Assembly (NCBI RefSeq): GCF_963921235.1
Contig: NC_086108.1
Coordinates: forward strand, 34,722,001 to 34,786,000
Direction: 5' to 3'
Length of the DNA: 64,000 nucleotides
Origin: Mobula hypostoma
Lineage: Eukaryota
A program made the translations under genes and the position numbers. The notes below the pieces were generated by a model. The model was not told the origin of the DNA. It did no database searches and saw nothing but the letters and a program-made list of their open reading frames with translations. Positions 6,437 through 60,630 of the stretch are shown here, one piece after another (within the stretch, counting starts at the first letter, position 1; the number at the start of each line of letters is the position of its first letter).

Positions 6437-6660
6437 CAAAGAGAAAATCTGCAGATGTTGAAAATCTAAGCAACACACACAAAGTACTGGAGGAACTCAG
6501 CAGGCCAGGCAGCATCTATGGAAAAAGAGTCCAGTCGAAGCTTCAGGCTGAGACCTTCATCAGGACTGGAGAAAAGAAGATGAGGGGTCAGAGTTAGAAG
6601 GGTTTCGGCCCAAAATGACTATACTCTTTTCCATGGATGCTGTCTGGCCTGCTGAGTTCC
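6437..6660. mobile_element. Penelope-like element 3' remnant, head-to-head inverted pair
   Basis: Left arm on the minus strand with a degenerate hammerhead at 6532-6568; right arm on the plus strand from ~6597 (GAAGGGTTTCGGCCC...GATGCTG...GAGTTCC). Confidence 0.75.
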
Positions 6661-7221
6661 AATGCAAAAAAAAAGTAGGGAGGTAGTGTTCATGGGTTCA
6701 AAGTCTATTCAGAAATCTGATGGCAGAAGGATGAGGCTGTTCCTGAATCATTGAGTGTGTGCCTTCGGGCTCCCGTACCTCCTGTTTGATGGTAGAAATG
6801 AGAAAAAAGCATCTCCTTGGTAATAGAGGTGCTTAATGCCGCCTTTTTGAGGCACCGCTCCTTGAAGATGTCCAGGATGCTGGGGAGGCTGGGCAGGATG
6901 ATGGAGCTGACTGAGTTAACAACACTCTGCAGCCTATTTTGGTCCTTTGCAATGCCCCCCGCCTTCCGTACCAGACGGTGATGCAGCCAGTTAGAGTGCT
7001 CTTCACAGTCCACCTGCAAAAACCTGCGTGTCTTTGGTGATGTACCGAATCTCCTGAAACTGCAAATGAAATATAGCTGCTCTTGTGCTTTATTTACAAC
7101 TGCATCGAACAGTTGGGCCCAGGATAAGTCCTCAGAGATGTTGACACCCAGTAACTTGAAGTTACTCACTCTTTCCAATTCTGATCCCTCAATGAGGACT
7201 GGTGTGTGCTCCCTCATCTTA

Positions 7222-7322
7222 TCTTTTCTGACGAAGGGTCTCGGCCTGAAACGTCGACTGCGCCTCTTCCTATAGATGCTGCTTGGCCTGCTGCGTTCAC
7301 CAGCAACTTTGATGTATGTTGC
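7222..7322 (+). mobile_element. Short PLE 3' terminal fragment
   Basis: Hammerhead followed by CTATAGATGCTGC...CAGCAACTTTGATGTATGTTGC, homologous to the other copies. Confidence 0.75.
7228..7260 (+). ncRNA. Minimal type I hammerhead ribozyme motif (intact core)
   Basis: CTGACGA-AGGGTCTCGGCCT-GAAA-CGTC-GACTG: CUGANGA and GAAA boxes, stem II, palindromic ACGU stem III, GUC triplet. The 5' strand of stem I is largely lost. Confidence 0.75.
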
Positions 7323-7430
7323 AGTGGGTCCAGCTCCTTTTAGAGGAAAGAGTTGGTTCTGGCCATAACCAACCTCTTAAAGCTCTTCATCACTGTAGGT
7401 GTGAGTAGTACTGGATGATAGTTGTTAGGA

Positions 7431-8848
7431 TAGATAGATAGACATACATTATTGATCCCGAGAGAAATTGGGTATCGTTACAATTGCACCAACCAAGAAT
7501 AGAGTATAAATATAGCAATATAAAACCATAAATAATTAAATAATAATATGTAAATTATGCCAGATGGAAATAAGTCCAGGACCAGCCTGTTGGCTCAGAG
7601 TGTCTGACCCTCCAAGGGAGGAGTTGTAAAGTTTGATGGCTACAGGCAGGAATGACTTCCTATGACACTCTGTGTTGCATCTCGGTGGAATGAGTCTCTG
7701 GCTGAATGTACTCCTGTCCCCAACAAGTACATTATGTAGTGGATGGGAGACATTGCCCAAGATGGCATGCAACTTGGACAGCATCCTCTTTTCAGACACC
7801 ACCGTCAGAGAGTCCAGTTCCATCCCCACAACATCACTGGCACTACAAATGAGTTTGTTGATTCTGTTGGTGTCTGCTACCCTCAGCCTGCTGCCCCAGC
7901 ACACAACAGCAAACATGATCGCACTGGCCACTGCAGACTCGTAGAACATCCTCAGCATCGTCCGACAGATGTTAAAGGACCTCAGTCTCCTCAGGAAATA
8001 GCGTCGGCTCTGACCCTTCTTGTAGACAGCCTCAGTGTTCTTTGACCAGTCCAGTTTATTGTCGATTCGTATCCCCAGGTATTTGTAATCCTCCACCACA
8101 TCCACACTGACCTCCTGGATGGAAACAGGGGTCACCGGTGCCTTAGCCCTCCTCAAGTCCACCACCAGCTCCTTAGTCTTTTTCACATTAAGCTGCAGAT
8201 AATTCTGCTCACACCATGTGACAAAGTTTCCCACCGTAGCCCTGTACTCAGCCTCATCTCCATTGCTGATGCATCCAACTATGGCAGAGTCATCCGAAAA
8301 CTTCTGAAGATGGCAAGACTCTGTGCGGTAGTTGAAGTCCAGGGTATAGATGGTGAAGAGAAAGGGAGACAAGACAGTCCCCTGTGGAGCCCCAGTGCTG
8401 CTGATCACTCTGTCTGACACACAATGTTGCAGGCACATGTACTGTGGTCTGCCAGTCAGGTAATCAATAATCCATGACACCAGGAAAGCATCCACCTGCA
8501 TCGCTGTCAGCTTCTCCCCCAGCAGAGCAGGGTGAATGGTGGTGAATGCACTGGAGAAGTCAAAAAACATGACCCTCACAGTGCTTGCTGGCTTGTCCAG
8601 GTGGGTGTAGACACGGTTCAGCAGGTAGACGATGGCATCCTCAACTCCTAGTCGGGGCTGGTAGGCAAACTGGAGGGGATCTAAGTGTGGCCTAACCATA
8701 GGCCGGAGCAGCTCCAGAACAAGTCTCTCCCGGGTCTTCATGATGTGGGAGGTCAAAGCCACTGGTCTATAGTCATTGAAGCCACTTGGGCGTGGCGTCT
8801 TCGGCACAGGGACAAGGCAGGACGTCTTCCACAGCACGGGAACCCTCT
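7431..8848 (-). mobile_element. Young 5'-truncated Rex1-clade LINE with open RT frame
   Basis: [42 protein letters not shown] within ORF 7536-9050; tail GGGATCAATAATGTATG(TCTA)n; GGA at both junctions (7428-7430, 8849-8851). Confidence 0.9.
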
Positions 8849-9326
8849 GGAGACTCACTTTGCTCATATTGGGCACTGGTATGATTGGTACCCACTTGAA
8901 GCGGGTAGAACTTATGACTGTAGCAGTGAGAGATTGAAAACGTCTTTGAACACACACTCCTGCCAGTTGGTTGGCACAGGTTTTCAGAGCCCTACCAGGC
9001 ACACCATCGGAGCCTGTCGCCTTGTGAAGGTTCACTCTCTTGATAGACAATCTGACTTGGCCTCTGAGACAGAGATCACAGGGTCACTGGGATCCTCGTA
9101 GCTGTAATTTTATTCTCCCTTTCAAAGTGTGTATAAAAAGATTTGGGCATGCAGATGAAAGAGAAGTTTAAATTTATATCTTGCCCATCAAAATATCGCA
9201 AAACTTGTTGTAGGCCAATCAAGTGGCCTGGTCATTGTTGTAAAGGGGGAACATGGCAGCAAACGAATGTATGGCAAGGTCCTTTAAAGAGCAGTGTGAT
9301 TATAACTAAATATACTGATTTGACAA

Positions 9327-10098
9327 TGTAACGTCCTGGTTAAGCTTTTACTGCTAATGCTGTAGGGTATTTCATTTAATAGATTTCTGCTGAAGCAGTG
9401 GGTTCTGCTGGTAGTGTTTGGGTTACTGTTAAAGATAAGGGTTTGTGATGATCAGCTTAGGAATGTCAGGTCAGCCAACCACGATGGTGGAGTTGAGAGC
9501 AGGTTCCAGAGAAAGCTGGGCGGAGAGGTTTTGTGACAGATGCAAAAGGGATCGAGGTCTTTTTTCGGCAGAAGATGGAGAGAGAAGAAGATCAAGAGAA
9601 CCAGCAGTGCGATTCAATTCAACCAGAATGCGCGACTCGATGGAGTCCAAGATGGAAAGTTCTATCAGTGATCGGTGAATAGGAGTTGGTGCTGTGAGTA
9701 CATGGACACCTCCAGCTTTTGGAAGTTCTGAGCTCCAACTTTGTGCACATTTGACTATTTTAATTATAATGAACCCTTTTATTTCCCCCCCCCTTTTTCC
9801 CTTTCTTCTTTGATAACTGTTTGATTAAGTGATATTCATAAATACACCCTTATATTTGTATGCAGTGTATGCTCTGTCATTTCTTGCCGATGGTAATTGC
9901 AAGTGGCAGCACTTATGCAGTATTCACTCAGATTGGGGGTGTGGGTGGTTGAAACATCCCAGCTCTCCCAAGTCAAATCAACCCTAAATGTACGGAGTTC
10001 GAGAAAGGTTGTTTTTTTTTCACCGCTGAGTCCATTGGCTTGTTAGCGAGGGGCTAACCACCAGTGTTTCTAGAAACGCCCAGTAAAAAGGGGTTTCA
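9327..10098. mobile_element. Possible solo LTR
   Basis: Starts TGTAAC and could end TTTCA; LTR-like composition; no TSD found. Confidence 0.4.
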
Positions 10099-10185
10099 TT
10101 AACGTTGGTTGTAGGATGAAGAGTGGCCTGGTCAATAGGGAGAATATACCTGCTCTTCTTGGAACATTTGTCTTGTGACATTTTT

Positions 10186-10278
10186 CTCACAAGAAATTCT
10201 GCAGATGCTGAAAATCCAGAGCAATACACACAAAATGCTGGAGGGGCTCAACAGATCAGGTAGCATCTATGGAGAGGG
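10186..10278 (-). mobile_element. PLE 3' terminal fragment truncated before the ribozyme
   Basis: CTGCAGATGCTG...CACACAAAATGCTGGAGG...GCATCTATGGA family sequence. Confidence 0.7.
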
Positions 10279-10369
10279 TTTTTCTCTCATCGACCTTAAG
10301 GGGCACATAAGGCCTTGATTTGTATTTCAACCCAATGGAGAGTCCCTGATACAAAGGAACAAAAAAAAT

Positions 10370-10925
10370 CATTTTAGTGCAAGTTGGTCATATTATTGCT
10401 ATACTGAGGTAATGATTAGAATTGTGCAGGTTGGTTTAAGAATTGAATGGCTGAAGATAAATTGTTGATCTTGAACCTGGCTGTGTGGGACTTCAGGCTT
10501 CTGTACTTCCTGCCCAATGATAGCTGTGAAAAGATGGTGGGAATCGTTGAAGGATGTTGTCTTCTTGAGGGATGTAGATGCTACTAATGTTGGAGAGGAA
10601 TGTAGATGCTACCAGTGTTGGAGAGGGATGTGCAGGTGAGACATTGGGTTGGGTCTACCACTCTCTACAGCTTCTTACATTCCTGGCCATTCATATTGCT
10701 GTAGCAGACCACAATGTTATTAGTCAGGGTGCTTTCATCAGGACAATTACATAGGGCCTTGGTGTGATCACACCTCCAGTATTGTATATATTCTTCTTCT
10801 CCTTACCTAAAAAAAGAGGATATACTGATGGTAGGGTGAGTGCACCAGGCTGTATATAACTCAGTTGGGAAGGTTGGACCTTGATTCTCCAGAAAACAGA
10901 GCGATGACCTTATTGAAGCATCCAA
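10370..10925. mobile_element. Decayed Rex1 (minus) and CR1 (plus) fragments
   Basis: Similarity to the 3' regions of other copies in the window. Confidence 0.5.
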
Positions 10926-12847: not shown

Positions 12848-13262
12848 GTGGGCAGCACAGTAGTTAACGGTTAGTGCAGTCACTTCACGGTGCCATTGAT
12901 AACTAATGAGGGTTCGATTCCTGCCACCGTCTGGAGACAGTCTGTATGTTCTCCCGGTCACCATGTGGCTCCAAAGACGTATGGATTCGGGTTAGTGAGT
13001 TGTGGGCATGCTGTATCAGCGCCAGATGCATGGCAACATTTGCAGGCTGCCCCAAGTACAATCCTCACTGGATTGACTTGCCACAAATGAGGCATTTCAC
13101 TGTAGGTTTTACAAACACGAGAAAACCTACAGATGCTGGAAGTCCAAAGCAACACACACATAATGCTGGAAGAGCTGGTTTGCATGGATGCTGTCACCCT
13201 GCTGACTTCCTGCAGCATTTTATGTATGTATGTTCTGATGTACATCTGGCAAATAAAGCTCT
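12848..13262 (+). mobile_element. tRNA-derived SINE interrupted by a PLE fold-back
   Basis: B box GGTTCGATTCC at ~12911; tail GATGTACATCTGGCAAATAAAGC. Confidence 0.65.
13113..13228. mobile_element. PLE 3' end fold-back insertion
   Basis: A minus-strand terminus is joined to a plus-strand GATGCTG...GCAGCATTTTATGT. Confidence 0.65.
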
Positions 13263-14759: not shown

Positions 14760-15120
14760 GTCTCCTATCACTTCCCTCCTCCCTCTGTTTCCGTCTGCCC
14801 ATCATCCCCCCTGACGTGGTCTATTCACCACCTTCCTTTCTTACCGGGTTACATAATCTCTTTGTTGTCTCTACCAATCACCTCCCCTCCACTGCTGTAA
14901 CTACCTCTGCCCCCCCACCAGAATCTGTCCATTATATTGCCAGCTCCTGCCTCACCCCTCCTCCTCACCTCTTTATGTTGCCACTCTCCCCTTTATACTC
15001 TCAGTCCTGACGCGGGGTCTGGGCCTGGGCCTGGGCCTGAGCATCGAGAGTCTGTTTTCCTCCATAGATGCTGTGTTCCTGCAGCAGTTTGTAGGTGTAG
15101 ATCCCAGCATCAGCGGTGAC
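14760..15120 (+). mobile_element. PLE 3'UTR remnant with degenerate hammerhead
   Basis: Pyrimidine-rich tract, then CAGTC-CTGACGC...(CTGGGC)x3...CCATAGATGCTG. Confidence 0.6.
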
Positions 15121-16400: not shown

Positions 16401-16609
16401 TGAGTCTGCCTCCCTTGGTCCATGGGGTGTTGTGTTCTGAGCCCTTTTTACACATCCTGTGATGTTGTCCCTATGGAGACATCTTTTGCTGATCCACATC
16501 ATTCAGGTAGAAGAGGATCAGGTTGAGGTAGATGAACATTAGAATAGAAGTATTTGAGGGTGTGAAAAAGGGTCAGTCTTCAGTGTGACCAGTGTGTATA
16601 TTTTTTTGA

Positions 16610-16716
16610 AGCAACACAAAAAATGCTGGAGGAATTCAGCAGGTCGGGCACTGTTAATGGTGAGAATTGGACAGTCAATGTTTGAGTTGAGACCCCTCTG
16701 AGTCCTGATGAAGGGC
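16610..16716. mobile_element. PLE fold-back remnant
   Basis: The minus arm ends in ribozyme stem II and is followed by plus-strand AGTCCTGATGAAGGG. Confidence 0.6.
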
Positions 16717-17339
16717 ATGCTGATAACGCCAGAGGTCAGGATTGAATCCCGGTCTCTGGAGCTCTAAAACAGCAGCTCAGCCATCTGTGCCACCATGCAA
16801 GAATGTGCTGTCATATATAGAATGCAGCAGTCAGATAATAAAAGTGGTTTGAATGTGAATGACCCTTTCTCTCTATTTTAAGGTTTCCTTTGCAAAATGT
16901 ACTTGTGTTGCATGAGTTATGACAGTCAGTATTTATTGAATGTGCTTGAAAAATTCCGGGCCTTGTACTACTCGGACGCTTTACGCTGGATAAACAACAC
17001 TTGTAAACATAAAAACCTTGTCCGCCGTGAACAGTTGACGCCATTAACCAGCGCCAAGCTAGCTCAAAATTTGCTGAAAATTGCTTCACTCCATGCCGAT
17101 ATGAGTTTGAACATCATTGCGCTGATTATTTTGGGAGAGTGCAAATTAATTTGCAGTCCATTCTGTCTCAAATAGGTCAGTCAAACACCCCTTCTTATTT
17201 CAACACAGAGAGAGGGTCTTCAACCATCAAGGCCCTACTGGTTTTCAGCAGAGACGTTCCGAGAATTTTTTTTCTCTTTAAAACTCTCTCACATGCCTAT
17301 CAACTTCCCTTTGTGATTTTATGCCACTTACCTCAACAA

Positions 17340-21847: not shown

Positions 21848-22020
21848 ACACATGATTCTGCAGATGCTGGAAATCTTGAGCAACACACATGAAACGCTGG
21901 AGGAATGCAGCAGATGAGGCAGCATCTACAGAAGGGAATAAATAGTCAGTGTTTCGGGTCCAAGACAACTGAACCAAGCCAATGCTGCCTGACCTGCAGA
22001 GTTCCTCCAGTTTTTTGTGT
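21848..22020. mobile_element. PLE head-to-head fold-back remnant
   Basis: The minus arm ends inside ribozyme stem II (GTTTCGGGTCCAAGAC); plus arm ATGCTGCCTGACCTGC...TTTTGTGT. Confidence 0.7.
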
Positions 22021-22669
22021 ATAAGATACGTCCTCCTTGCTGCTTGATGACCATGGGTTTACCTTCAGCAGTTCAATAAAAATTAGAAATATATGAGGAA
22101 AGGTTTGCATGCCCTCCAAGACTGGTGAATTTATTCTCTTGTGTTTGCATAGGCCTTTGGGTGACGTAGTGTTTGGAGAAGAAATTCTTCCTATTCTACA
22201 TACAAGCCTGAGATACAGTCCAGTCTGATTTCCTGCATCGTGCATTGCAAATATGCACTCTTAAGCATTAATGTTGGTTCTGTGACTGATAATCCCTTGT
22301 ACAACACAGACAAATCTCCTCAAAATTGTGCAATAACCTTTAAAAATTCAAGCTTGATAATTTTGCTCTTTAACTCTTGGGCAGAGGATGAATCAAATGA
22401 TAGCTTTCCTGCTTGTCTGTTTCTTTAGTTTAAGATTTTTTGATTGATTTCTCCTTGTTTTGTCTGGCTTGGTGTCTTTTCTTTGAATAGTCTTTATGGT
22501 GTCGGCATTAAAGGCTGCCTGGTTTAAGTGCCTGTTATTGAACAGCGTTCGGTGACATGCCTTGGAGGCAGTGTCTCTCCTTGTTTCAGTTTGATAGCAC
22601 ACAGATCAGAGAGCCAGCGCAACCTTGCTGCCGGCTTGAAAGGTACTCAAAGAACAGCTTTCAGGATTT

Positions 22670-24526: not shown

Positions 24527-24632
24527 GAGATATTTACTCTGTTCCATAGATGCTGCCTGACCTGCTGAGTTCCTCCGGCATTTTGTGTGTGGTGCTTTGG
24601 ATTTCCAGCATCTGCAGCTTCTTTTGTGTTTG
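24527..24632 (+). mobile_element. PLE 3' terminal fragment starting just downstream of the ribozyme position
   Basis: TTTACTCTGTTCCATAGATGCTGCCTGACCTGCTGAG...GCATCTGCAG. Confidence 0.7.
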
Positions 24633-24859
24633 TGTCTTTACTGTTGTTTCCAGCCCTTTAGAAATTCTGTAGCGAATTTCACAGTAAATTTTTGCACAAT
24701 CCAGATTCCTTTCTGTTAAGCCAGAACTTTGCGATTTGTCCTCTTCTGGAAAATGTCCTTATGTAGTTACATTTATCAAAGCAGTTCTTCCTTCTAATGA
24801 GGAGGAGTAAATTCTGGCCAGCAGGGCCAGGGCAAGACAATATTATCAGTGCTTTGTGC

Positions 24860-34950: not shown

Positions 34951-36359
34951 TCAGAATAGTTTACCTCCACCCAAGGGAGAAGAAAAGGCTTCATTCCTTA
35001 ATTAATTTTTAATTTCTGGAGACTCTACGATAATCCAGGGCAGTTGCTGTGGTGTGTTACGTTCATTTCTCCAGAGCCCATGGAAATAACTCCTCCAGCA
35101 AATTAAGGATATTAGTCACAGTGCGCTTCAGGTCTATACATCTATTGTCTTCTAGCCAGAAAAGTCTAAACTTCTATTTAATAGCAATAGTTGTGGCTTC
35201 TCAGTGTGCTCATACCAAAATCATTCTCTCTCTGTTGACTTTGAGGTGACACCATTCATATCAAAATCAGATGCAGTATTCAGCTCTACACGAAAACAAG
35301 CTACAGGGTTTTGAAAGTTCAAGGCCTTCCTGTCAATCAAATCACATTGCTTTCCCTTGGTAAGCTTCACTTACAGTTGATGACTTGACCTCACTGACCC
35401 TTCCCGAGCTCTGGAATCCCAAGCGGAATCAGGTAGTTCACTGAGGATAGAGGAAGCCAGAGTTTTGTATCATAATCTGGGTGTTTTCAGAAATCTGTAA
35501 TACTGACAGAGCATAATTTCTGATGTGCATGGCAACTGTGAGTGAGTTACCACTATAAACCATTGCTGCAAGGTCAACACTTGAGTATTGAATTCTACCA
35601 TGGTTCAGTCTGCTAACTGGAAGTCCTTGCATCTGTGATAATTATCATTATTAATATTTTTAAAAGTTCAATGAACTGATCTACATCAAACCAGAAGAAC
35701 CTGTTCATGACTGCAATAATTGCTGCTGCTTCATTTATGTTTATCAGTAAAAATACACCTGGTTCAGGCAGCATATAATCTCTGAAATTCTTCCAGGCAT
35801 AAATTAAGTAACACTTTGTGTTTAAAACCACTGGATTATGGAAGGACTGGAATGGCTGATACGTCAATTACGTCAAGAGAGAAAATGAGTTCATTACAAT
35901 TAATTTCACAGTCATGAAATGAAAACATTGGTGAAAAATGTAATCATATTTTAATGAGATATTTGCTGAATTCATCTCATTAGAGTTTATTTTAATTCTG
36001 TAGCCCAGTCTAATTCTTTGCATTTAATGGTATTTGTGTTGTTTTTAAATGGGTTAAAATTTACTAGGATATTTTTACTGTAGGTTACCCTGTAGTTCAA
36101 GTTTATCTGGTATTCTGGAGGTCTTGATTGATTGGTACTGAAGGTGCCAAATGTGATATTGTTATTAGTTCTCTGGGATATTGTCATTCAGGAGAAAAAT
36201 TCATCTCTATCCATAGATATGAAAAAGTCAGATAGTTATGTATCATCTGAAAATAATATATTCAGATCTTGGTATAATAAAACTTAAAGCTGATTCAGAG
36301 AAAGTTCACAGGCATATCTTAAGTTCTAAGAGACTAAATGAAAATTTATAAAAAACTTT

Positions 36360-36560
36360 ATATGCTGGAAATCTGAAACAGAGAAAGTGCTGGAAAAACT
36401 CAGATGGTCAGGCAGTATGTGTGGGAAGGGAAACCCTCAATGTTTCAGGTCTGTGATCCTTCATCAGAGCTGAGCAAGAGATAACCAAGTAAGTTTTCAG
36501 TAGGAGTAAAGATGGGAGGCAAGGTGTATAGAACAAAGGGAGTGTCTATGATAAGATGAG
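36360..36560 (-). mobile_element. Older PLE subfamily remnant with hammerhead core
   Basis: The minus strand reads CTGATGA-AGGATCACAGACCT-GAAA-CATT at ~36435-36472. Confidence 0.6.
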
Positions 36561-38836: not shown

Positions 38837-38990
38837 CTTGCTTGGGGGGGGGCGTCAAGTGATGACGTGGGATTGAGACGTGTAAATCCAGCTCTCCCGC
38901 AACAAGTCAGTAAAGTACCGTTTAAACAAAACAAAGTTAGTAAATATTTTCTGAAAACTATTTATAAACTTTGTAAGATTACTTTACGAT

Positions 38991-40112
38991 ATGCCTCCTA
39001 AACCGCAACAAAAGAAGTCTGCTGTTGCGAAGCAGCCGCGAGACGGGAAGCAAAAAGGGCCTACTGCAACGATGGAGCCTCGGACTCAGGTTGGATCTCC
39101 TTCGGTAGAACAGAGAGCAACGGCGGTGGCAACGGTTTCTTCGAAGAAGACGCCGGTAATGCACATGCGCAAAGAAGAGCGCATGCGCAAACCGACACAA
39201 CACAAACTACAAGAACCAATAGCCACTGCAATTGAAAATGACTCAGAGTCAGAATCGGATTCCGCAGAGAACATAGATGAAGAAGAGGAGGAAGAACTGG
39301 AAGCGATTGGAAGTAAAGGAGATGATAGAGATATGAGAGAGGCTATATTGCAATTAACGGCTGAATTAAGAAAAGTAAGAGAAGAACTTAGAGATACGAA
39401 GATGTGCTATGATAAAGTTATGGCAAGACAGGACAAAATGGATAAGAAGCTTCAGAAGATGGAAAGAGCAATGGGGCATATGAATGATAGAGTGGAAAAT
39501 ACAGAAAATGATTTGCTTGTCTGGAATTCGGAAAGAAACCGACTCTTGGAGAAAGTGGACATGTTGGAAAATTTTAGTAGAGGTAATAATATTAAAATTG
39601 TTGGTCTTAAAGAAGGTATGGAGGGAGATAAACCAGTTAAATTTTTTGAAAAATGGATCCCAGATGTTTTGCAAATGGAAGAGGAGGTTCGATCCATTGA
39701 AATTGAGCGGGCACATAGAGCTTTAAGACCAAAACCAAAAGATGACCAATATCCACGATCGATTTTAATAAAATTCTTAAGATTTCAAGACAAGGAAAGG
39801 ATTCTACAGGCAGCTACTCGAGCTGCCAAAGATAGAAAAGGGCCATTGATAATTGGAGACAACAAAGTTTTTTTCTATCCTGATATAAGTTACGAACTTT
39901 TGAAGAGAAGGAAGAAATTTAATCCAGTGAAAAAAACCCTATGGGAGTATGGTTATCAATTTACACTGCGTTATCCTGCAACTTTGAAGATTTTTTTGGT
40001 GGGTGGAGAAAAAAGATTTTTTGATGATTATCAGAAAGCAGAGCAGTTTGTGCGAGATTCTCTGAAAACTCACCAGACACAAGAACAAACCCAGGAGAGC
40101 GAGATAGATTGA
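38991..40112 (+). CDS. L1 ORF1p (coiled coil, RRM, CTD), intact 373 aa
   Basis: LENFSRGNNIKIVGLKEG, IERAHR, PRSILIKF, FYPDIS, YPATL. Confidence 0.92.
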   Translation: MPPKPQQKKSAVAKQPRDGKQKGPTATMEPRTQVGSPSVEQRATAVATVSSKKTPVMHMRKEERMRKPTQHKLQEPIATAIENDSESESDSAENIDEEEEEELEAIGSKGDDRDMREAILQLTAELRKVREELRDTKMCYDKVMARQDKMDKKLQKMERAMGHMNDRVENTENDLLVWNSERNRLLEKVDMLENFSRGNNIKIVGLKEGMEGDKPVKFFEKWIPDVLQMEEEVRSIEIERAHRALRPKPKDDQYPRSILIKFLRFQDKERILQAATRAAKDRKGPLIIGDNKVFFYPDISYELLKRRKKFNPVKKTLWEYGYQFTLRYPATLKIFLVGGEKRFFDDYQKAEQFVRDSLKTHQTQEQTQESEID

Positions 40113-40580
40113 AGATGAAGATTGGGTTAGAGAATGGACTTGATGGATTTTTGAAGCTGTATGAATGTATAAATATATTATTAATTATACGAGGGGGGTA
40201 AGAAAGGTTAAAACTGGAGGAATATTAGTTGGGAAAAGTAATACTAATTTTGTCTATATGTATATAATGTTTTTTTTTGTTGCGGGGGAGCTGGAAGAAG
40301 CACTGATCGATTGCTACGCTAGTCATGTGTGCAAGCGTGGCTTTTGCCACGACCCGCAAAATGGAGGGGGGTAGTGTTGTGTATCCTTTCGTTCACAACA
40401 TTAGTGGGGGGGTATTTTGTTTTTTCTTTTTTTGTACTTTTTCTATCTTTTTTCTTTTTGCCTGGAAGGTTGGGAGGGAGACACATAGCAACATGGTGAG
40501 GTTTAAAGAGATTCCCCAAGGAACTATGAAAGTTGAGAAGATAAATAATGTTTTAGATTGGAGTAACTTTGTGAAGAATA

Positions 40581-43500
40581 ATGACTAATTTATTGAATTT
40601 TTTGAGTTTTAATGTTAATGGGCTTAATGGACCAGTGAAAAGAAAAAGAATCTTAACACATATTAAAAAAATGAAGATAGATTTAGCTTTTTTACAGGAA
40701 ACGCACCTAACGGAAACAGAACATCAGAAACTAAAGAGAGATTGGGTGGGTAGTGTTGTTGCGGCTTCATTTAACTCAAAAGCGAGGGGAGTAGCAATTT
40801 TGATCAATAAAACGTTACCAATTAGAATACAAAATGTAATAACTGATTCTGCGGGGAGATATGTGATTATACATTGTCAACTTTTCTCTGAATTATGGAC
40901 TTTTATGAACATTTATGCACCAAATGAAAATGATGCAAAATTCATACAAGAAGCTTTTCTGAATTTGGCGGATGCGCATGAAAAAATATTAATTGGAGGA
41001 GACTTTAATTTTTGCTTAGACCCAGCCTTAGATAGATCAACCAAGGCTGTTATAAAATCGAAGGTAGTAAATTTAACTTTATCATTGATGAAGGATTTAA
41101 ATCTGATTGATATATGGAGAAGAATCAATCCTAAAGAAAGAGACTATTCGTTTTACTCCCATAGACATAAAACTTTCTCAAGGATAGCTTTGTTTCTATT
41201 ATCAATGCATATTCAACACAGAGTGAAAAATATGGAATATAAAGCAAGAATATTATCAGATCATTCCCCTTTATTAATGACAATAATAATGGCTGATAAG
41301 GAAGAAGTGGCTTATAGATGGAGATTTAATTCAATATTATTAAAACGTCAAGATTTTTGTGATTTTATGAAAAAGCAGATTCAATTTTTTTTGGATACAA
41401 ATTTTCATTCAGTGGATGATAAATTTATATTATGGGATGCGATGAAAGCATATCTTAGGGGCCAGATAATAAGTTATACGTCTAAAATTAAGAAAGAATA
41501 TATGGCAGAACTAGATCAATTGGAAAAAGAGATTACAAAACTAGAAAAAGAATCTCAAAGATATATGTCAGAAGAGAAACGAAAACAGCTTGTCAATAAG
41601 AAGTTACAATACAATACGCTTCAGACATATAGAACGGAAAAAGCAATTATAAGAACTAAACAAAGGTATTATGAGTTAGGTAAAAGAGCACATAAAATTC
41701 TTGCCTGGCAGTTGAAAACAGAACAAGCTTCCAAAACAATAAATGCAATTAGAACAAGCGCAAATAAAGTATCTTATAAACCTCTTGAAATAAATGAAAC
41801 TTTTAAAAATTTCTATTCTGAATTATATCAATCAGAATCCCAAAATGATATTAATGAGATAGAAGGGTTTTTATCACAAGTTTCTCTTCCAAAATTGAAT
41901 TTGGAAGAACAGAAGGGATTAGATATGCCTTTTACATTAAAAGAAGTTGAAGAAGCTTTAGGATCACTCCAAAGTAATAACTCTCCAGGAGAAGATGGTT
42001 TTCCACCTGAATTTTATAAAAAATTTAAAGATTTATTATTTCCTCTTTTTATGGAACTAATACGTCAAGCAGAAAAAATACATAAACTTCCAGAATCTTT
42101 TTCAACAGCGATTGTAATAGTATTGCCAAAAAAAGACAGAGATCCTATGAAACCAGCATCATATAGGCCTATTTCTTTATTGAATACGGATTATAAAATA
42201 ATAGCAAAAATTTTATCGAATAGATTATCTAAATATTTACCAAAATTAATACATATGGATCAAACAGGATTTATTAAAAGTAGACAATTGGCAGATAATG
42301 TAACTCGGCTACTCAGTATAATTCATTTGGCACAAAAAAGGGATGAGAAGAGTATAGTAGTAGCTTTGGATGCAGAAAAAGCATTTGATAGGTTAGAATG
42401 GGATTTTTTATTTAAAGTACTAGAAAAATATGGGTTAGGAACATCTTTTATAAATTTGATTTAAACTTTAAATTCTAACCCTAAAGCTAAAGTAGTGACA
42501 AATTCTCAAATTTCAACACCATTCCAGTTAAAAAGGTCAACTAGACAAGGTTGTCCACTATCACCTGCTTTATTTGTATTGGCGATAGAGCCATTAGCAG
42601 AACTAATTAGAATTGATCCAGATATTATGGGTTTTAGAGTTAATCAGGAGGAATATAAAATTAATCTTTTTGCCGATGATGTTTTGATCTATTTAACAAA
42701 TCCACAATATTCGTTACATAAATTATCTTCTGGATTGGATGAATCTGGGAAGGTATCAGGTTACAAAATAAATTGGAATAGAAGTGAAATTTTACCTCTT
42801 ACTAAAGGAGACTATAGTCAATGTCGATTAGTAACCCAATTTAGATGGCCGGTAAATGGTATAAAGCATTTAGGTGTAAGACTTGATAATGATGTAAAGA
42901 ATTTATATAAATTTAATTATTTACCACTATTGAAAAAAATTCAAGAAGATCTTGACAAATGGATGATATTACCAATAACATTAGTAGGTAGAGTCAATGT
43001 TGTAAAAATGAATATATTTCCTAGATTACAGTATCTGTTTCAAACATTACCAATACAATTGCCACAGAAATTTTTTCAAGAGTTAAATAAATGGGTGACA
43101 AAATTTCTTTGGAAAGTAAAATGTCAAGAATATCATTGGAAAAATTGACATGTAAATTTGGGTTAGGAGGGTTACAACTTCCAAACTTTAAAAACTATTA
43201 TAAAGCAAATCAACTTAGATTTATTGCATCTTTCTTCGATGATCGAAAACCAGCATGGATTAAAATAGAACTAGACAAGATAGGAGAAAATAGACCTGAA
43301 GATTTTATATATAAATGGGAATCTAAATTGATACGGGAAAAGAAAGAATCTCCTATATTAACACATTTGATTGATCTATGGAATAAGATAAATGTTGATA
43401 ATGAAACACAGAAATCTCTATTAGCAAGGAGACCTTTGTTCTAAAACAGACTTATTCCTTTTACAATGGACAATCAACTTTTATATAATTGGTACCAAAA

Positions 43501-44356
43501 AGGGATTAAATTTATAGGAGACTGTTTTGAACGAGGTATATTGATGTCATTTGAACAATTAAAGGATAAATATAAAATATCTAATAATACTTTCTTCTGT
43601 TACTTTCAATTAAGGGCTTACTTAAAAGGTAAGCTGGGTCAAACAATGTTTTTGCCAAAACCTGATGACATTGAAATTTTAATTCAAAAAGGGAAAATTA
43701 AAAAATTTATTTCTTGTATGTATAATTTGATTCAAGAACAGACAATTAAACAAGGAACCCATAAGTCAAAGCAAAAATGGGAAACAGATCTGAATATTAT
43801 TATTGATGAAACAAATTGGTCAAGACTTTGTCTTGACAGTATGACAAATACAATAAATGTTCGACTTAGATTAGTACAATATAATTTTTTACATCAATTA
43901 TATATTACACCGCAAAAAATAAATAGATTAAATACAAATTTTTCTGATAAATGTTTTCGGTGTAATCAAGAAATTGGTACTTTTTTACATTCTACTTGGT
44001 CTTGTTTTAAAATTCAACCTTTTTGGATAAATTTAAGAATCTTATTGGAACAAATTACTGCAACTCAACTTCCACATAACCCTGTATTATTTTTATTAGG
44101 TGATATTGAAGGGATAAAACCGAAACTTAAATTGAATAAATATCAGAAAGAATTTATAAAAATTGCATTGGCAGTAGCTAAGAAGACTATAGCAGTTACT
44201 TGGAAACCTGATTCGTATTTAAGTATGGATCGTTGTAATAATGAAATGGCTAGTTCTATTCCACTTGAAAAAATTACTTATAATTTAAGAGATAAATATG
44301 TAACATTTTTGAATATTTGGCGCCCTTATTTACAAAAGATAGGATGGCATATTTAA
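40581..44356 (+). pseudogene. L1 ORF2 (APE endonuclease, RT, CCHC), disabled
   Basis: FNVNGL, LQETH, GDFN, SDH, YRPISL, DAEKAFD, RQGCPLSP, LFADD, CFRC...H...C; stops ending at 42464 and 43444 and a frameshift near 43115. Confidence 0.93.
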
Positions 44357-45231: not shown

Positions 45232-46298
45232 AAATAATATCCCGACTGCTTCACTCAATGTGCGTCATTGCTTTGTTCACTACTTTGCTTCAAGCCTCAC
45301 TGACCTACAGTGAGATTATAGCCATTAGATCTTCTTTGACTGTGTGGAGGATGGCTTGCTTTCACTCCAGATTTGTAGGTTCTGAGGCATTTAATGAGGC
45401 CTGTGTGAGAATTGGAGACTGTTGCACACTTGGGACAAGGGTGTCGCATTGGACAGACAGGGGCTGGTTGGTGATCAGGTGGTGCACTCTTTTCCCCTAC
45501 CTGTGAAATGCTCCTGAAAATCTACCTCTTTGTCAAAGTTTTCGTTCTTTTGCCCTCAGGCATCCTTTGGTGCCAGTCTGTCAGATGTAATTTGATGAAG
45601 CTCTTGTGTTGCATCTGTGATGTTTTACTATATTAATGATGCTACATAAACACAAATAGTTGTTGAAGCTGTTCACAGTTCTATCTGGCCTTTAGCTATG
45701 TTTTCATTTACAACATACTCTGAATAAGAGGTCGGTCTTCTATTTTTTTCCTCTTTGCTTGTGGTCTGGCATGACCAAATGGCTTCCCAGACCGCTTTTG
45801 ACAATTGAATACATTAATCTGGCATTGGAGTAACTTATAGGGGCTGGAGTTCTCAGAGTTTAGCTACCAGTGAATCCGATCTGGGTATTGTTATTTGGCA
45901 GTGTGACAACTTCTATGGGAATGAATTTCTTTATTTTCAGACTTTATTAACTGAATGCAAATTTCTAAGTTGCCTGCACCCTTAGGAGCATTAATGTAGA
46001 GATCTCTGGGTGCATGGCCATGGCTCTCTGAAGATAGCAATACAAACAGATAGGGGAGTTCAGAACAAAAATTGAGGAACTCAGTTGCAGTTGTGAAGGT
46101 TAGGCTACACTTAGAGTATTCTGGTTGCTGCACTACAGGAAGAATGTTGAGGCTTTGGTGAGGGCTCTGAAGATGATCTCCAGGATGTTGCCTGGATTAG
46201 AGTGTATTAGCTACAAGGAGGGGTTGAACAAATTTGAATTGTCTCCTCTGGAGTGTCAGAGGCTGAGGGTTGTTGTTATAGATTATTATAAAATTTTA

Positions 46299-46363
46299 CA
46301 GTACTGTGCAAAAGTCCTAGGCACATATGTAGCTAGGGTGCTTAAGACTTTTGCACAGTACTG
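46299..46363. mobile_element. 65-bp Tc1/mariner MITE
   Basis: 26-bp TIRs CAGTACTGTGCAAAAGTC(C/T)TA(G/A)GCAC; TA on both sides. Confidence 0.9.
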
Positions 46364-46439
46364 TAGATTATGTATTTCCAGTTACCAAATAACACTTAAT
46401 GCTACTGAGCTAAAACAAAGCCAAGTACCCTTATCTCTG

Positions 46440-54700: not shown

Positions 54701-55546
54701 ATGGTATTATCTGAAACATTAGCATAGTCTTCGGACCACAATGAGGCCACTGACCTCAACTGGTCAATGCCATTGTTTGAATTCCTTTGACCTTTTCCCC
54801 CACTTGTTCCATCATGTCCTGTCTCTTTAGCAAACCAAAATGCAGATGCTGAAAACCTGAAATCACAACCAAAACCAAAATACTCAGCATATCAGGCAGC
54901 GTCTGTGGAAAGAGAAGCATGTCAGTGCTAAGATTTCAAATCAGAGCCTAGCATCAGAATTCAGTCATCCTTTGCTTTGTATGCCCTTCAGTGGCTTCTG
55001 TTTCTGACCAGGTGTAGACTTGGTTGTCTGAAGAAGCCTATCTGACTCTATGACCAAAATAAATTATAGCTTTGTGTGAATGTACACCTGCTTTAGGCTT
55101 CTGCCTTTAAAAAGATAAAATTAAGCTCTGGAATGGAATGTCATTTTGACACTTCTCACTTTCTCTATTGGAAATGAATTACTTTACATGTTAATTTGTC
55201 AAACCACCTCCTGAGATGTTTAGTGTTGAAAAGTGAAGGGAGCCATTTGCAGCACAGATGAGCTTTATACAAAAGCAGCACCATCTGTGAAGTCAGAAGC
55301 AATTGCTTAGAAAAATCGAGTGACAGACAAAAAACAAAAACAAACCGGTGAAAGAGCTTTTTAAAAAGTTGTTGGGGTGGTTTTCAGCTGAGCCGTGTGA
55401 AAGCCTGTCTTTGCACATGCCTGTTGGCAGCTGCTTATGAACTCATCGCTGCTGTGCCAGCACGAGAAAATCTGCAGATCCAAGCAACACACACCAAATG
55501 CTGGAGGAACTCAGCAGGTCAGGCAGCAACTATGGAAAAGAGTAAA

Positions 55547-55584
55547 CAGTTGATATTTCAGACTGAGATCCTTCATCAGGACTG
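55547..55584 (-). ncRNA. Type I hammerhead ribozyme motif
   Basis: CAGTC-CTGATGA-AGGATCTCAGTCT-GAAA-TATC-AACTG. Confidence 0.7.
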
Positions 55585-56574
55585 GAAAACACGATGAGAG
55601 GTTAGAGTGTGAAGGTGGGGGAGGGGAGGAAGAAGTACAAGATGGTAAGTGATAGGTGAAACCAGGAGAGGGAGTGGGGATGAAGTAAAGAGCTGGGAAG
55701 TTGATTGGTGAAAGAGATAAAAGGCTGGAGAAGGGGGCAACACACACAAAATGCTGGAGGAACGCAACGGGCCAGGCAGTATCTATGGAAAAGAGTACAG
55801 TTCACATTTCGGGACAAGAGAAGGGGCTATCTGATAGGAGAGAGTAGCGGACCATGGAAGAAAGGGAAGGGAGAAGAATGTTAGAGGGAGGTGATAATGT
55901 GAGAGAGGGAAATGGGAATGGGAGAATGGTGAAGGGGGGTGAGATAATTACTGGAAGTTTGAGATATTGATGTTCATGCCATCAGCTTAGAGGCTATGCA
56001 GCTGGAACACAAATGGAGTGTGGCCTCATCATGGCGATAGAGGAGGCCATAGATTGTTTCGGAATTGGGAGAGGGTTTCGCCGAACACCTATGCTCTGCC
56101 TACCAGGAAAAATAGGATTTCCCGGTGGCCACCCATTTCAATTCCACTATGTCAGTCCATGGTCTCCTCTACTGTTCGATGAGGCAGCACTCAGGTTGGA
56201 GGATCAATACCTTATATTCCATCTGGGTAGCCTCCTACCTGATGGCATGACCATCAGTTTCTTGAACATCCAGTAATTGCTCTTCCCCTCCATTGCATTG
56301 TTTCACCATTTCCCATTCTTGTTTCCCTCTCTCACCTTATCTTCTTACCTGCCCATCACCTCCCCCTGGTGCTCCTCCCCTTCGCTTTCTTCCATGAACT
56401 TCTACCTTCGCCTATCAGATTCCCCCTTCTCCAGCCCTTTTTCTCTTTCACCTATCAACTTCCCAGCTCTTTACTTCACCCCTTCCCCCTCCCAGATTCA
56501 TCTATCACCTGCCACTTAGTACTTCTTAATGCCCTCCCCCAATCTTCATACTCTGACTTCTCATCTTTTTTCTC

Positions 56575-56612
56575 CAGTTCTGATGAAGCGTCTTGGCCTA
56601 AAATGTCGACTG
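56575..56612 (+). ncRNA. Hammerhead motif with core mutation (GAAA to AAAA)
   Basis: CAGTT-CTGATGA-AGCGTCTTGGCCT-AAAA-TGTC-GACTG. Confidence 0.6.
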
Positions 56613-56911
56613 TTTACTCATTTCCATAGATGCTGCCTGGCCTGCTGAGTTCCTCCAACATTTTGTGTGCACTGCTGTGCCTGCACTACATTGACTGGGT
56701 TGTCAGATTAAGCAAGGGGGAAAATGCAGGTAAAATAAGAGCACGGTGCTCCCCTCTACTTATGGACAATCATCCCCACACCACTGTGACACATGCTCAC
56801 TCGATGGAGTGGCCCAATCAGCTCGGGTCAAGAGTTGTCTCAAGCTCCTGTGAGCTGCAAGCCAATGAAGAACCAGTGATCATTGAAAATCGTGATCTTG
56901 AAAATTGCTGT

Positions 56912-57049
56912 CACAAGCAATCGAAGATCTGCAGACGCTGGAAATCCAAGCAACACACCCAGAATGCTGGAGGAACTCAGCCAGCCAGGCAGCACCAGTG
57001 GAAAAGAGTAAACAGTCGACATTTCAGGCTGAGATCCTTCATCAGAACC
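56912..57049 (-). mobile_element. 138-bp solo PLE terminal unit with perfect 15-bp TSD
   Basis: CTTGAAAATTGCTGT at 56897-56911 and 57050-57064. Confidence 0.88.
57013..57049 (-). ncRNA. Type I hammerhead ribozyme motif (intact core)
   Basis: GGTT-CTGATGA-AGGATCTCAGCCT-GAAA-TGTC-GACTG; 4-bp stem I; GUC triplet. Confidence 0.75.
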
Positions 57050-57547
57050 CTTGAAAATTGCTGTGATCTGTGAAAGAAATTGCCTATCATTGTGCCAGGG
57101 ATGGAAAAGTAAGGCTCAAAGCACAAAAGCAATGCATTAGAGAGTTAGTGCAGCCTCTTTATCAGGAACCTTTTTCCTGAACACTGTGCCATGTACTCCT
57201 GAGCTGATTCAGAGTTCATGCGTCTCCCCTACAAGTTACAGTTTCTGTCTTGCTGATGGGAATGACACTGCACGAATTTGTGATGTCATCAGGTGGTGTC
57301 AGAAGCTGGACAGGCTAAGGGGAATCTGGGGTCAGTCTTTGTTTCTTTGATTCTATTCTTTTTCTTTGTTCTGCTGTGAATGCCTGCAAGAAAATGAATC
57401 TCAGAATCGTACTTGGCGACGTATGCGTACTCTGATAACAAAATTACTTTGAACTTTAGAACTTTGAGTGCCTGGGGCAATTGTCTTGTTCTTGCTAAAT
57501 GCAAAAAATAACCAGCATGAAATGGAATTTACTTTCAAAACACTCAC

Positions 57548-59012
57548 TGTCACAGTGGCGGGGGCATAGGGAGCAAGGGTGGACCCAAATGCTGAGACAC
57601 ATCTTGTGAGGTTACTTAGATTTAGTTTATTGTTGGATACCAAGAAAGCAAAGCAGAAGCAGGAATAACGAACAGGATAAGGACTCAGGACTACGACTAG
57701 GCTGGGACCAAGGGTCTGGACTTGGACTAGGAATCGGCTCCCAGAACTAGAGGAGACATGAAGAGGCTAGGGTATGGACTCCGAGCCCAAGACTGGGCAA
57801 GGACCCAGTACCTGGGTCTTGCCTCAGGCTTGGACCCCAGAACCAGGCATGGAGAGGAGGAACATAGAAAACAGAGCCTCGGTCTCGGGAGAGCAGGTAC
57901 ATGGAACCATGGACACATACACAGAACACAGAGTCGGGAGCCCTCCTTGGGTACAGGACATAGGGCCGGGACTCACACACAGAACAGCGACCCGGGACCC
58001 CTCCTTGGGTACAGGACATAGGGCCGGAACTCACACACAGAACAGAGAGCCAAGACCCCTCCTTGGGTACAGGACATAGGGCCAGGACTCATGACCCTCC
58101 GCGGGGCAACGGCAAGACGGCCTGACTTACCCCACGGAGGCGAGGACAAGACAAGACATGACTCCCCGCAGGGCAACGGCAATACAGCGTGACCTACCCC
58201 ACAGAGGCAAGGACAAGACAAGACATGACCAACACGAAAGAACACCAGACAGTACCTATCTAGCTCCAGCAATAGAACTAGACCGAAGTGCAGACGAGGG
58301 CTAGAGGCGAGAGGGGCAGAGAGGGGATTCAGACAGGGGGGGTAGGACAGGAATCACAGACTGCCAGGGCCAGGACTTGATTCAGAACTGGGAAGCTGCC
58401 AGGGACAGGACTTGACTTGGTACTTGAATGCTGCCAGGGCCACGACTTGACTGGGTACGTGAATGCTGCCAGGGCCAGGACTTGACTTGGTACGTGAATG
58501 CTGCCAGGGACAGGACTTGACTTGGTACTTGAATGCCACTAGGGCCAGGACTTGGACTTGGAACTTGAATGCCCCCGGAGCCAGGACTTGACTTGGAGCC
58601 TCCAGGTAGTGGTGAGCTCTCGACTTGGCCTGGGAACAGTAGACAGCGGTTCTTGATTCCCTCCGGCGGGTTAACTGACGGACCCACCTCAGTGAGGAAA
58701 CTTTGCAGGCTCGCTTTGGCGAGGTAACTAGACAGGGTTGCTCCAGTGAGGAGAGGTGAATTACCGGCACTCGCTTCGGGTGGAGACTAGGCTTGCTCTA
58801 GCCAGATGACATTGGCACGCCGTACCTTGGTGACTTTGCAAACGCTCCCGCGCCGAACGGCTGAAAGCTGGACACTATAAACTACCGGTTCAGCCGAGCA
58901 TTAATTGCCTCTAATCACCAAAGTCGAGGGACACGGGAAAACAGGGAATCAACGGTCTGGATCGTAACATAAACAAGGTAAATTTAAAGGGACCCCGATC
59001 CGGACCATGACA
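57548..59012 (-). mobile_element. Solo LTR (1465 bp), probably Ty3/Gypsy, with internal tandem repeats
   Basis: Termini TGTCA...TGACA; 5-bp TSD CTCAC (57543-57547, 59013-59017); minus-strand AATAAA near 57626. Confidence 0.88.
57916..58600. repeat. Minisatellites within the LTR
   Basis: ~58-bp unit x3 (57916-58089), a second ~55-bp unit x2 (~58095-58230), and a ~35-bp unit GCTGCCAGGGACAGGACTTGACTTGGTACTTGAAT x~7 (58360-58600). Confidence 0.85.
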
Positions 59013-59992
59013 CTCACACAAAAAAGCACAGAAAAAATAGTACAATTTCACAATAACTGACTTATTAATACATTTATCCTTATACTTTGTGATTTCTTAT
59101 TGCAGTGTCATGACTGAAATTGTAGTTAGAGTTTGTCATGGGTTATTGATCTACACAGATTCCAGCTTTGAAACCTAGCCTGCACTGGGCCAGTGAGGTC
59201 CTGCTAAAGGAGATGGCAGTATAATTTGTATCATCGTCCATCATTCCATAGTGAAGTGACAGAAATAATGCACTTAAAACAGTTGATGTGAAAGCATGTA
59301 CTTAATCTGATGTCTTTGTGTTCTTGATAGCTTAATAAATATTGCAACTTCCCTCAGGAAAGCTTGGTAATGACCTTGGGGCAAGCACAGGACCTCTGCT
59401 TTGTCTTTGTGAGCAGGGAAACTTGTAGGCGGTTTTATCACCAGAGAAAGACAATAGATAATTAGAGGATAAGATGTTCTGTTAAAGTCCCTCATGGTCC
59501 GTCACAAGTAGTATCCAGCATTTATGCCATCAAGTTATCTCAACCTGTCTTTTGGTGTCAGTTTCAAACAAGAGATTTACTTCAGTTATTTTTATCAGCT
59601 TCATTTCCCTCTGCCTATTAGTTTAATTACATTTTTGTTTACTGAATTCTTGAGTTTCATCTAATAAGACATCATGCATGTTTGCAGGTCTCGAGGTAAA
59701 CCCTTTCTGATCAGTGTGCCCCGTCACTTGATATCTGAGCAGGTTATCAACTCCTCTTGCGTACACATCTGCGGATTTTCTGTTTTACATAAACGTAGAA
59801 TTAAAATGTGTTTACAACTTGACTGGAAACCTAGAATATATTTTCCTATTACTCTTAAGTGCTTGCAGTTGCCCCAGAATGCTTCACAAACCTTATGCTC
59901 ATCAACATTTGGATCCTTTACATCCCCCACTGACTTCACTCAGTCATTTAGCACTGAATGATCTCAACCGCCGTAAATAAGATAGAGTTGAT

Positions 59993-60630
59993 AAACATGA
60001 GAGATTCTGCAAAAGCTGAAATCCAGTATAACAAACACGAATGCTGGAGGAACTCAGCAGGTCAGGCAGCAGCTATGGAGAGAAATGAAGACTGAATGTT
60101 TCAGGCTGAGACCTTTCATCAGGAAATGGAAGGAAGGGAGAAGAAGCCAGATTAGAAGGTGTGGGGAGGGGAAGGAGGATAAGCTAGAAGATGATAGGTA
60201 AAGCCAGATAAGGTAGATGGGCGAGGTAGGTTGATGATGTCAGAAACTGTGAGCTGATAGGTGGAAAAAATAAAGGGCTGAAGAAGAAGGAATCTGATAG
60301 GAGAGGAGAGTGGGCCATGGAGACAGAGAACGAAGTAGGTCATCTTAAAGAGGGTTGATAAGCAGGTGAGGAGAGGAGAAGGGATAAGAGGGGAGCCAGA
60401 ATGGGAAGGGAGAGAATGGGGAAGAGTGAAAGTGCAGAAATTACTGGAATTTGAAGAAATGAATGCTCATGCCATCAGGTGTTGCTCCTCTAACCCGAGA
60501 GTAACCTCATCATGTCAGTAGAGGAGGCCATGGACTGACATGTTGGGATGGGAATGGGGATTAGAATTAAAATGTTTGACCATCAGTAAATTCTCCCTGT
60601 TGTGGATGGAGCAAAGGTGCTCAACAAAGT
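59993..60630 (-). mobile_element. PLE 3' portion (GIY-YIG tail, 3'UTR, hammerhead core at ~60090-60125)
   Basis: Homologous to 55459-56671; the minus strand reads CTGATGA-AAGGTCTCAGCCT-GAAA-CATT. Confidence 0.8.

Follow-up and report, generated by a model that had tools for sequence, protein, structure and literature searches.

The stretch analysed here, 64,000 nucleotides of the Mobula hypostoma genome (RefSeq assembly GCF_963921235.1, contig NC_086108.1, positions 34,722,001 to 34,786,000 of the forward strand; hereafter the window), contains many copies of a single repeat family whose 3′ tail carries a motif with the layout of a minimal type I hammerhead ribozyme (min-HHR). The motif reads CAGUC-CUGAYGA-A-GGGUCUCGGCCU-GAAA-CG-UC-GACUG, and in its intact form UAGUC / CUGACGA / A / GGGU-CUCG-GCCU / GAAA / CG / UC / GACUG. 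The carrier is a Penelope-like element (PLE), to which we return below after describing the copies in the window.

A blastn search with the copy at 57013 as query found 12 further pieces in the window, and a profile of the repeat's last ~200 bases identified 18 tail copies in all, eight of which span the whole motif. A preliminary description, made from the letters of the window, had listed a series of hammerhead-like sites; the motif was found at all of them, and all belong to the one repeat family. Eight of these sites had been called full or near-full, which holds for the two catalytic boxes (CTGANGA and GAAA) in five cases, at 7228(+), 36435(-), 55547(-), 57013(-) and 60090(-), whereas the sites at 6532(-), 56575(+) and 15002(+) are damaged. 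The three sites described as partial, at 6597(+), 16701 and 21943, are real and are located at the junctions of head-to-head pairs, of which the window holds those at 6439-6660, 13109-13229 and 21853-22022 and probably another at 16607-16727. The copies, in order of position, are as follows.

6439..6608, minus strand: PLE tail copy with the motif at 6532-6568; CTGATGA intact, GAAG for GAAA, one stem II base deleted; left arm of a head-to-head pair
6597..6660, plus strand: right arm of the same head-to-head pair (6439-6660), beginning within stem II; GGCCC-AAAA (G12 to A)
7212..7326, plus strand: young-subfamily copy, perfect from C3 to G1.5 (7229-7261; CTGACGA...GAAACGTCGACTG), with CTTTT in place of the stem I 5′ strand
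10185..10277, minus strand: tail-only copy, 5′-truncated downstream of the motif
13109..13229, both strands: head-to-head pair of tail pieces without the motif, 13109-13173(-) and 13179-13229(+)
14957..15116, plus strand: degenerate copy with the motif at 15002-15050; CTGACGC, a (GGGCCT)3 expansion, no GAAA
16607..16727, both strands: fold-back junction, in which 16607-16697(-) begins in stem II and faces a short (+) fragment, GAGTCCTGATGAAGGG
21853..22022, both strands: head-to-head pair, in which 21853-21958(-) retains only CCC-GAAA-CA-CT-GACTA and 21982-22022(+) is tail only
24531..24633, plus strand: tail-only copy
36352..36481, minus strand: old copy with the motif at 36435-36472; boxes intact, stems I and II broken, stem III ACAU
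54837..54914, minus strand: tail-only copy
55457..55627, minus strand: old copy with the motif at 55547-55584; boxes intact, stem II of 4 bp, stem III AUAU, G1.1 to A breaking the first pair of stem I
55724..55812, minus strand: partial copy beginning at stem II position 11.2
56532..56677, plus strand: old copy with the motif at 56575-56612; G12 to A (AAAA), stem II broken
56912..57067, minus strand: old copy with the motif at 57013-57049; boxes intact, stem III AUGU, homology from ~2 bases before C3
59991..60174, minus strand: old copy with the motif at 60090-60125; boxes intact, stem III ACAU, stem I 3′ strand lost

In the degenerate copy the (GGGCCT)3 expansion, at 15020-15040, arises from stem II of the PLE hammerhead.

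None of the 18 window copies is intact when judged by a strict descriptor, which comprises CTGANGA, GAAA, a Watson-Crick pair 15.2/16.2, U16.1, H17, and at least 3 bp in each of stem I and stem II. The nearest to passing are 7229-7261, perfect from C3 on and without the 5′ strand of stem I, and the copies at 57013 (AUGU for ACGU) and 55547 (G1.1 to A). The sequences AUGU and AUAU, which the preliminary description had set beside ACGU as palindromic forms of stem III, are, like ACAU, products of CpG decay in dead copies rather than alternative designs. The copies in the window appear to be dead relics, presumably without a function of their own. Searching with the loose pattern CTGATGA-N4-30-GAAA gave 7 matches in the window, where 2.5 ± 1.8 were expected and 2 of 100 shuffles reached 7; four of the seven are copies of the family, and the pattern by itself is mildly enriched.

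The carrier element and its published relatives

The proposal that the motifs are carried by PLE remnants is well supported by loci elsewhere in the genome: at locus L045 the motifs flank an open reading frame (ORF) with reverse transcriptase (RT) and GIY-YIG similarity, copies of the family have a common 3′ end and variable 5′ ends, and many lie in head-to-head pairs. The two motifs of L045, at 2525 and 6040, are exactly 3,515 bases apart and occupy both terminal repeats. The ORF between them begins with an ATG at 2613 and stops at 5741 (1,042 aa), and the element ends at ~6169, 128 bases past the start of the second motif. The first in-frame ATG comes 48 bases after the predicted cut site of the 5′ repeat; this repeat opens with the last part of a preceding ORF, and the arrangement is thus a partial tandem. 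Weak Pfam hits were obtained to RVT_1 (aa 534-698, E 2.2e-4) and GIY-YIG (aa 946-1020, E 1e-3), and the ORF also contains PADKGG (DKG) at aa 447 and a CX4CxxC linker followed by VIY...YIGETRRRL. Its nearest protein-atlas clusters carry HTH_animal, DUF8422, RVT_1 and GIY-YIG (score 0.98).

The same association recurs at other loci. In L003 and L001 the motif has the GIY-YIG ORF directly upstream of it, at ~300 bases where homology extends that far. All 30 loci centred on the core of the motif have their 3′ end 135-140 bases after C3, while their upstream homology is variable and reaches at most 794 bases. A genome search with the GIY-YIG ORF gave 207,958 first-look candidates; most of the 150 candidates that were scored were 99% identical, some in open frames of up to 1,043 codons. 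In locus L046 an inverted truncated partner is found at the element's 5′ end, and over the first 100 places of the intact 36-mer in the genome all eight opposite-strand pairs within 1 kb are head-to-head. The hallmarks that Craig et al. (2021) give, in the part of that paper at hand, for canonical endonuclease-positive PLEs include partial-tandem pseudo-LTRs (long terminal repeats), an inverted 5′-truncated partner and heavy 5′ truncation, all of them shown by the family; the same part mentions an extra Zn-finger-like linker motif in Neptune and Nematis, with CX2-5CxxC named for Neptune. From its sequence, the family is a PLE bearing a GIY-YIG endonuclease, with a unit of 3,515 bases.

Two further features of the element were noted. 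The first in-frame ATG of the PLE ORF lies within the terminal repeat (L045 2613-2654), 42 bases before the unit junction, and a full ORF thus exists only in copies that are longer than one unit. Among Logan contigs from 24 sequencing runs, whose kind is uncertain but probably DNA and which we used for variants and joints, single contigs in runs X1, X5 and X19 join the end of the ORF (L045 5728-5736) to 6036, the base just before the motif. This join skips the C/T-rich 3′ untranslated region (UTR) of ~300 bases and may represent a deletion variant or a lineage with another UTR.

The min-HHR of metazoan PLEs was described by Cervera and De la Pena (2014, PMC4209133) as having two boxes with one extra base between A9 and 10.1, usually a G10.1-C11.1 pair, a 15.2-16.2 palindrome whose loop 3 is small or absent, and a short stem I. 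It is found in both terminal repeats, its activity in vitro is low, and dimerisation was presumed to be necessary. The motif of Mobula hypostoma has the layout of that published alignment: it shares the order stem I, CUGANGA, extra base (A), stem II, GAAA, C-G, U-H, stem I, as well as the type I topology, a stem I of 5 bp, and GAAA followed by a two-base palindrome (CG) and then U-H. As in the published genomes, it occurs in both flanking repeats and mostly in solo or opposite-strand truncated copies, thousands per genome, though the copy number here is several times the ~9,000 of Xenopus. Entries with the same column order in the supplement include sea urchin (CUGACGAA ... C G U C), fugu, cichlid, lamprey and Xenopus.

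Within the Mobula hypostoma genome, the unpaired base between A9 and 10.1 is A in 135 of 141 covered copies, and intact copies carry the palindrome ACGU at 15.2-16.2, through which a helix III could form in a dimer. Position 11.1 is U in the young subfamily and commonly C in older lineages; in 106 distinct copies the 10.1-11.1 pair is G.U in 48, G-C in 35 and A-U in 6, with 12 unpaired and 5 gapped, the ancestral state being blurred by CpG decay. The G.U of the dominant young form also occurs in two published entries, those of cichlid and Xenopus (PMC4209133). Taken by sequence, the family belongs to a kind known since 2014, the min-HHR of PLEs. With canonical type I hammerheads (Rfam Hammerhead_1 and related) the motif shares the catalytic boxes and the cleavage triplet GUC, but unlike them it has no helix III hairpin and no loop-loop contacts.

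A comparison can also be drawn with the Poseidon element PAc of Anolis (Mob DNA 2024, PMC11167929; statements on it refer to the part of the paper at hand), which likewise has a hammerhead in its terminal repeat near the ORF start and a GIY-YIG endonuclease. The cut site of PAc is 26 bases downstream of the start codon, whereas the predicted site here lies upstream of the first in-frame ATG, and cleavage by PAc was demonstrated experimentally, with protein needed, whereas for the motif here it is predicted from the sequence. No RNA-seq reads start or end at the presumed cut site of PAc, and few genomic copies (4 of 192) start at the one predicted here. The text and supplement of PMC4209133 hold no cartilaginous fish (no hits for shark or Callorhinchus), and we found no description of PLE hammerheads in cartilaginous fish in the literature, apart from a 2026 preprint (bioRxiv 10.64898/2026.07.22.740005) that, in the part at hand, samples one chondrichthyan.

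Abundance, decay and constraint

The density of motifs in the window had been taken to imply a very large genome-wide load, and direct counts bear this out. The family exceeds chance by far: in the 3.48-Gb genome there are 8,734 occurrences of the 24-base core CTGATGAAGGRTCTCRGCCTGAAA (reversed control, 0). The commonest intact 36-mer is present 35,322 times (control, 0), and the 5′ half GTCCTGAYGAAGGGT, with A6, 127,549 times. A random sample of 100 stretches of 10 kb (1 Mb in total, taken at round coordinates on 14 contigs) contained 192 tail copies, or one per 5.2 kb, which extrapolates to ~670,000 genome-wide. The whole motif is spanned by 109 of the 192. Only 19 of these 109 pass the strict descriptor, all of them in the young subfamily; this rate of ~19 per Mb extrapolates to ~66,000 genome-wide. 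Since every 5′-truncated or head-to-head copy left by retrotransposition retains the 3′ tail, the motif is dispersed at a density of about one in 5 kb.

In the 90 motif-covering random copies that fail the descriptor, the defects affect the 15.2/16.2 pair in 61, stem I in 56, stem II in 44, GAAA in 42 and CUGANGA in 39. The motif columns of low conservation are CpG positions, and most of the damage is at CpG sites; as the motif holds four or five such sites, old copies quickly lose it. For annotation this means that a 64-kb window full of 'ribozymes' is, in this genome, ordinary repeat content, with nearly all old copies inactivated by CpG decay.

Conservation of the motif above its flanks, on which the preliminary description had staked its reading, is seen, and the motif block is constrained. 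At motif columns other than CpG sites the majority base is present in 0.82-0.96 of copies, compared with 0.37-0.72 in the C/T-rich region upstream and ~0.47-0.8 in the downstream spacer; a hairpin block further along the tail is conserved as well as the motif. The same picture emerges between subfamilies. When the 63 random copies that cover profile columns 40-150 were clustered on their flanks, three clusters of at least five copies were obtained (20, 11 and 5), whose majority states differ at 6 of 38 motif columns, all of them CpG sites, N7 or position 2.5, as against 13 of 13 upstream, 9 of 16 spacer and 5 of 27 hairpin columns. In Logan contigs of four organisms, at a likeness to the repeat of at least 80%, a single motif variant reached a frequency of at least 20%, namely U/C at position 11.1, compared with 33 positions with such a variant in 281 upstream bases. 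Both U and C at 11.1 pair with G10.1.

Proposed cleavage by the motif and its alternatives

We consider it likely that the motifs are minimal type I hammerheads from both terminal repeats of a PLE, and that intact copies would cut after GUC, though only when paired through ACGU or assisted by the protein of the element. Self-cleavage of the motif RNA is predicted here from its layout. PLE retrotransposition, in which the 3′ tail is always copied, has left the dispersed motifs as by-products. When a full or tandem element is transcribed, two motifs, either in cis at a distance of 3.5 kb or in trans, would pair by way of ACGU and of the stem I strands of one another, such that two active sites would form, each cutting after GUC; cutting would probably be slow and assisted by the protein of the element. 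If the 5′ repeat were cut, a leader of 47 bases would remain ahead of the ATG, and cuts at both repeats would release a unit RNA of 3,515 bases, from G1.1 to C17.

The suggestion that intact intronic copies could cleave host pre-mRNA found no support: single min-HHRs were without detectable cleavage (PMC4209133), and the Anolis PLE hammerhead cut only with protein, according to the part of PMC11167929 at hand. Cleavage of host pre-mRNA by a lone intronic copy is unlikely, and lone old copies, including all of those in the window, are presumably inert.

Several observations weigh against a cleaving hammerhead in a PLE. Stem II has 4 bp and a tetraloop, with G.U at both ends in the young form, whereas the published stem II usually has 6-8 bp and G10.1-C11.1 (PMC4209133). 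The RVT_1 and GIY-YIG hits of the L045 ORF are under the curated Pfam cut-offs (21.5 versus 29.6 bits and 19.7 versus 22.6 bits, respectively). A search with the Rfam hammerhead models, including those for type I that the preliminary description had recommended, gave no hammerhead hit, whether at the gathering score, at E up to 10 on the window, or with the 111 bases around an intact copy. This result is expected, because the motif lacks a helix III hairpin and the models need features that min-HHRs do not have, and it is not evidence against a min-HHR; with the models silent, membership in the class rests on the descriptor and the genomic context.

The pattern of variation in the stems is a further difficulty. 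The recommended test for covariation gave no signal in stems I and II: in 115 copies (106 distinct), 80.2% of cells were paired, compared with 79.5% in shuffles (61 of 500 as high), and the covariation score was 0.185, compared with 0.175 in shuffles (70 of 500 as high). The stems are as invariant as the core, and it thus seems to be the sequence rather than the pairing that is constrained. This near-invariance within one genome differs from the families of PMC4209133, which are described as 'full of covariations' and whose stem sequences differ between species in the published alignment.

There is also a sizeable lineage in which the core is presumably dead. Copies with CUGCYGA (A6 to C) number at least 9,388 (control, 3), against the 127,549 with A6. 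A6 is an essential base of the hammerhead core. Most of 20 inspected A6-to-C copies have common upstream and spacer markers, and in 4-6 of the 20 remains of the endonuclease ORF lie directly upstream, with 65-80% amino acid identity to the young ORF (examples of the lineage are L178-L197 and, in the random sample, L049:8772-8940, L083:5812-5960 and L126:932-1039). A PLE lineage thus spread with a presumably dead motif in its copied repeat, and its copy number implies that an intact core in the copied repeat is unnecessary for spread.

Nor do copies tend to begin where the cut is predicted: 4 of the 192 random tail copies start within a few bases of the cut site and 28 of 192 around C3, although this is a rough comparison, as the ends of local alignments are fuzzy. 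Of 21 young terminal copies, 7 have their start between -17 and +11 of C3; 6 of 30 exact-core loci start within ~3 bases of it, and loose ends and strand-switch joints of contigs are found at L045 6036-6044. Finally, folding with ViennaRNA, which is not decisive, gives -12.9 kcal/mol for the dimer hammerhead versus -31.7 kcal/mol for an extended duplex; the minimum-energy fold of the monomer has stems I and II, plus a GACG/CGUC pairing.

As an observation in its own right, the 5′ ends of copies, the turning points of fold-backs and loose ends of contigs appear to gather at or just before C3 (L045 6036-6044; in the window, 56912-57067(-) and 7212-7326(+)). A hotspot of 5′ ends exactly at C3 was considered and rejected. 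There are 1,228 intact 33-mers without C at -1, compared with 35,322 with GTC, and the 30 that were inspected from this set are roughly one third each point mutants, fold-back junctions and truncations, with an exact C3 boundary being infrequent.

The most serious alternative is that the block descends from a PLE hammerhead but has been retained for another job, as an RNA-start mark, a reverse-transcription stop or a protein-binding site, with no cleavage in vivo. It would account for the 9,388 copies of the dead-core lineage, for stems as invariant as the core, and for copy starts and fold-back joints that cluster at C3, away from the cut site. It is also consistent with published activity that is low or protein-dependent and with insertion in vitro that is independent of cleavage (PMC4209133 and the part of PMC11167929 at hand, where the hammerhead of the Anolis element was dispensable for insertion in vitro), and with PLE clades that lack hammerheads and proliferate well, as stated in the part of Craig et al. 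(2021) at hand. However, the dominant lineage keeps every core position that a hammerhead needs, and the single common variant (11.1 U or C) preserves pairing. The same layout recurs with different stem sequences in PLEs across animals (PMC4209133), which fits a ribozyme better than a fixed protein site, and the A6-to-C lineage is an old minority, 9,388 copies versus 127,549. We regard descent from a hammerhead with cleavage abandoned in vivo as quite improbable. That the block in Mobula hypostoma is kept for a non-cleavage role, in which it may mark the 5′ end of the copied RNA or be a protein handle, is a tentative proposition that we consider unlikely; if it were true, the genome would be a natural experiment on the purpose of PLE hammerheads. 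Hammerheads have been known in PLE terminal repeats since 2014, and the Mobula hypostoma genome offers an unusually large and young data set on their function: identical motifs in the tens of thousands, full-length copies whose frames are open, and the dead-core lineage. It could be used to study the importance of cleavage for the spread of PLEs and the starting point of the RNA that is copied.

We give very little credence to the idea that the short copies form a non-autonomous element in their own right, whether a circular-RNA retrozyme or the tail of a short or long interspersed element (SINE or LINE). Many copies are only 90-170 bases long, but across the family the 5′ ends form a continuum from 0 to more than 790 bases upstream, reaching into the GIY-YIG ORF. 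LINE-type RT ORFs are located just 5′ of the copy at 6532(-) and share its strand, but this copy is part of an inverted pair and is not contiguous with the LINE; the LINE-tail idea was dropped once full-length PLE copies had been found and 6532 was recognised as one arm of that pair. The part at hand of the preprint cited above (bioRxiv 10.64898/2026.07.22.740005) derives vertebrate retrozymes from PLE terminal repeats, with one chondrichthyan species included, and its non-LTR retrozymes resemble the copies here in having type I hammerheads related to those repeats. Retrozymes, however, are tandem arrays of short units, whereas the copies here are dispersed, 5′-truncated or inverted ends of PLEs, and there is no tandem array of short units within the window. 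One same-strand pair 460 bases apart was examined as a possible retrozyme tandem and rejected, as its members were inserted at different times (identity to the reference, 98.8% and 90%). An accidental resemblance to hammerheads, for which the missing Rfam hits and covariation might be cited, is already very unlikely given that all features of the published min-HHR descriptor occur together and that the motif is present in both PLE repeats, exactly where such motifs are described (PMC4209133).

Other features of the window

Besides the PLE copies, the window contains ORFs of other retrotransposons at 347-2461(+), 7536-9083(-) and 38955-44356(+). These comprise two RVT_1 ORFs, one of which also matches ALKBH8_N, and one L1-like element, in which an ORF1 with a dsRBD-like hit is accompanied by an AP endonuclease and by an RT that a stop interrupts. 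A near-perfect hairpin at 46292-46370, both strands of which match mir-239 weakly (E 0.026 and 0.36) and far under the gathering score, is probably a palindromic repeat.

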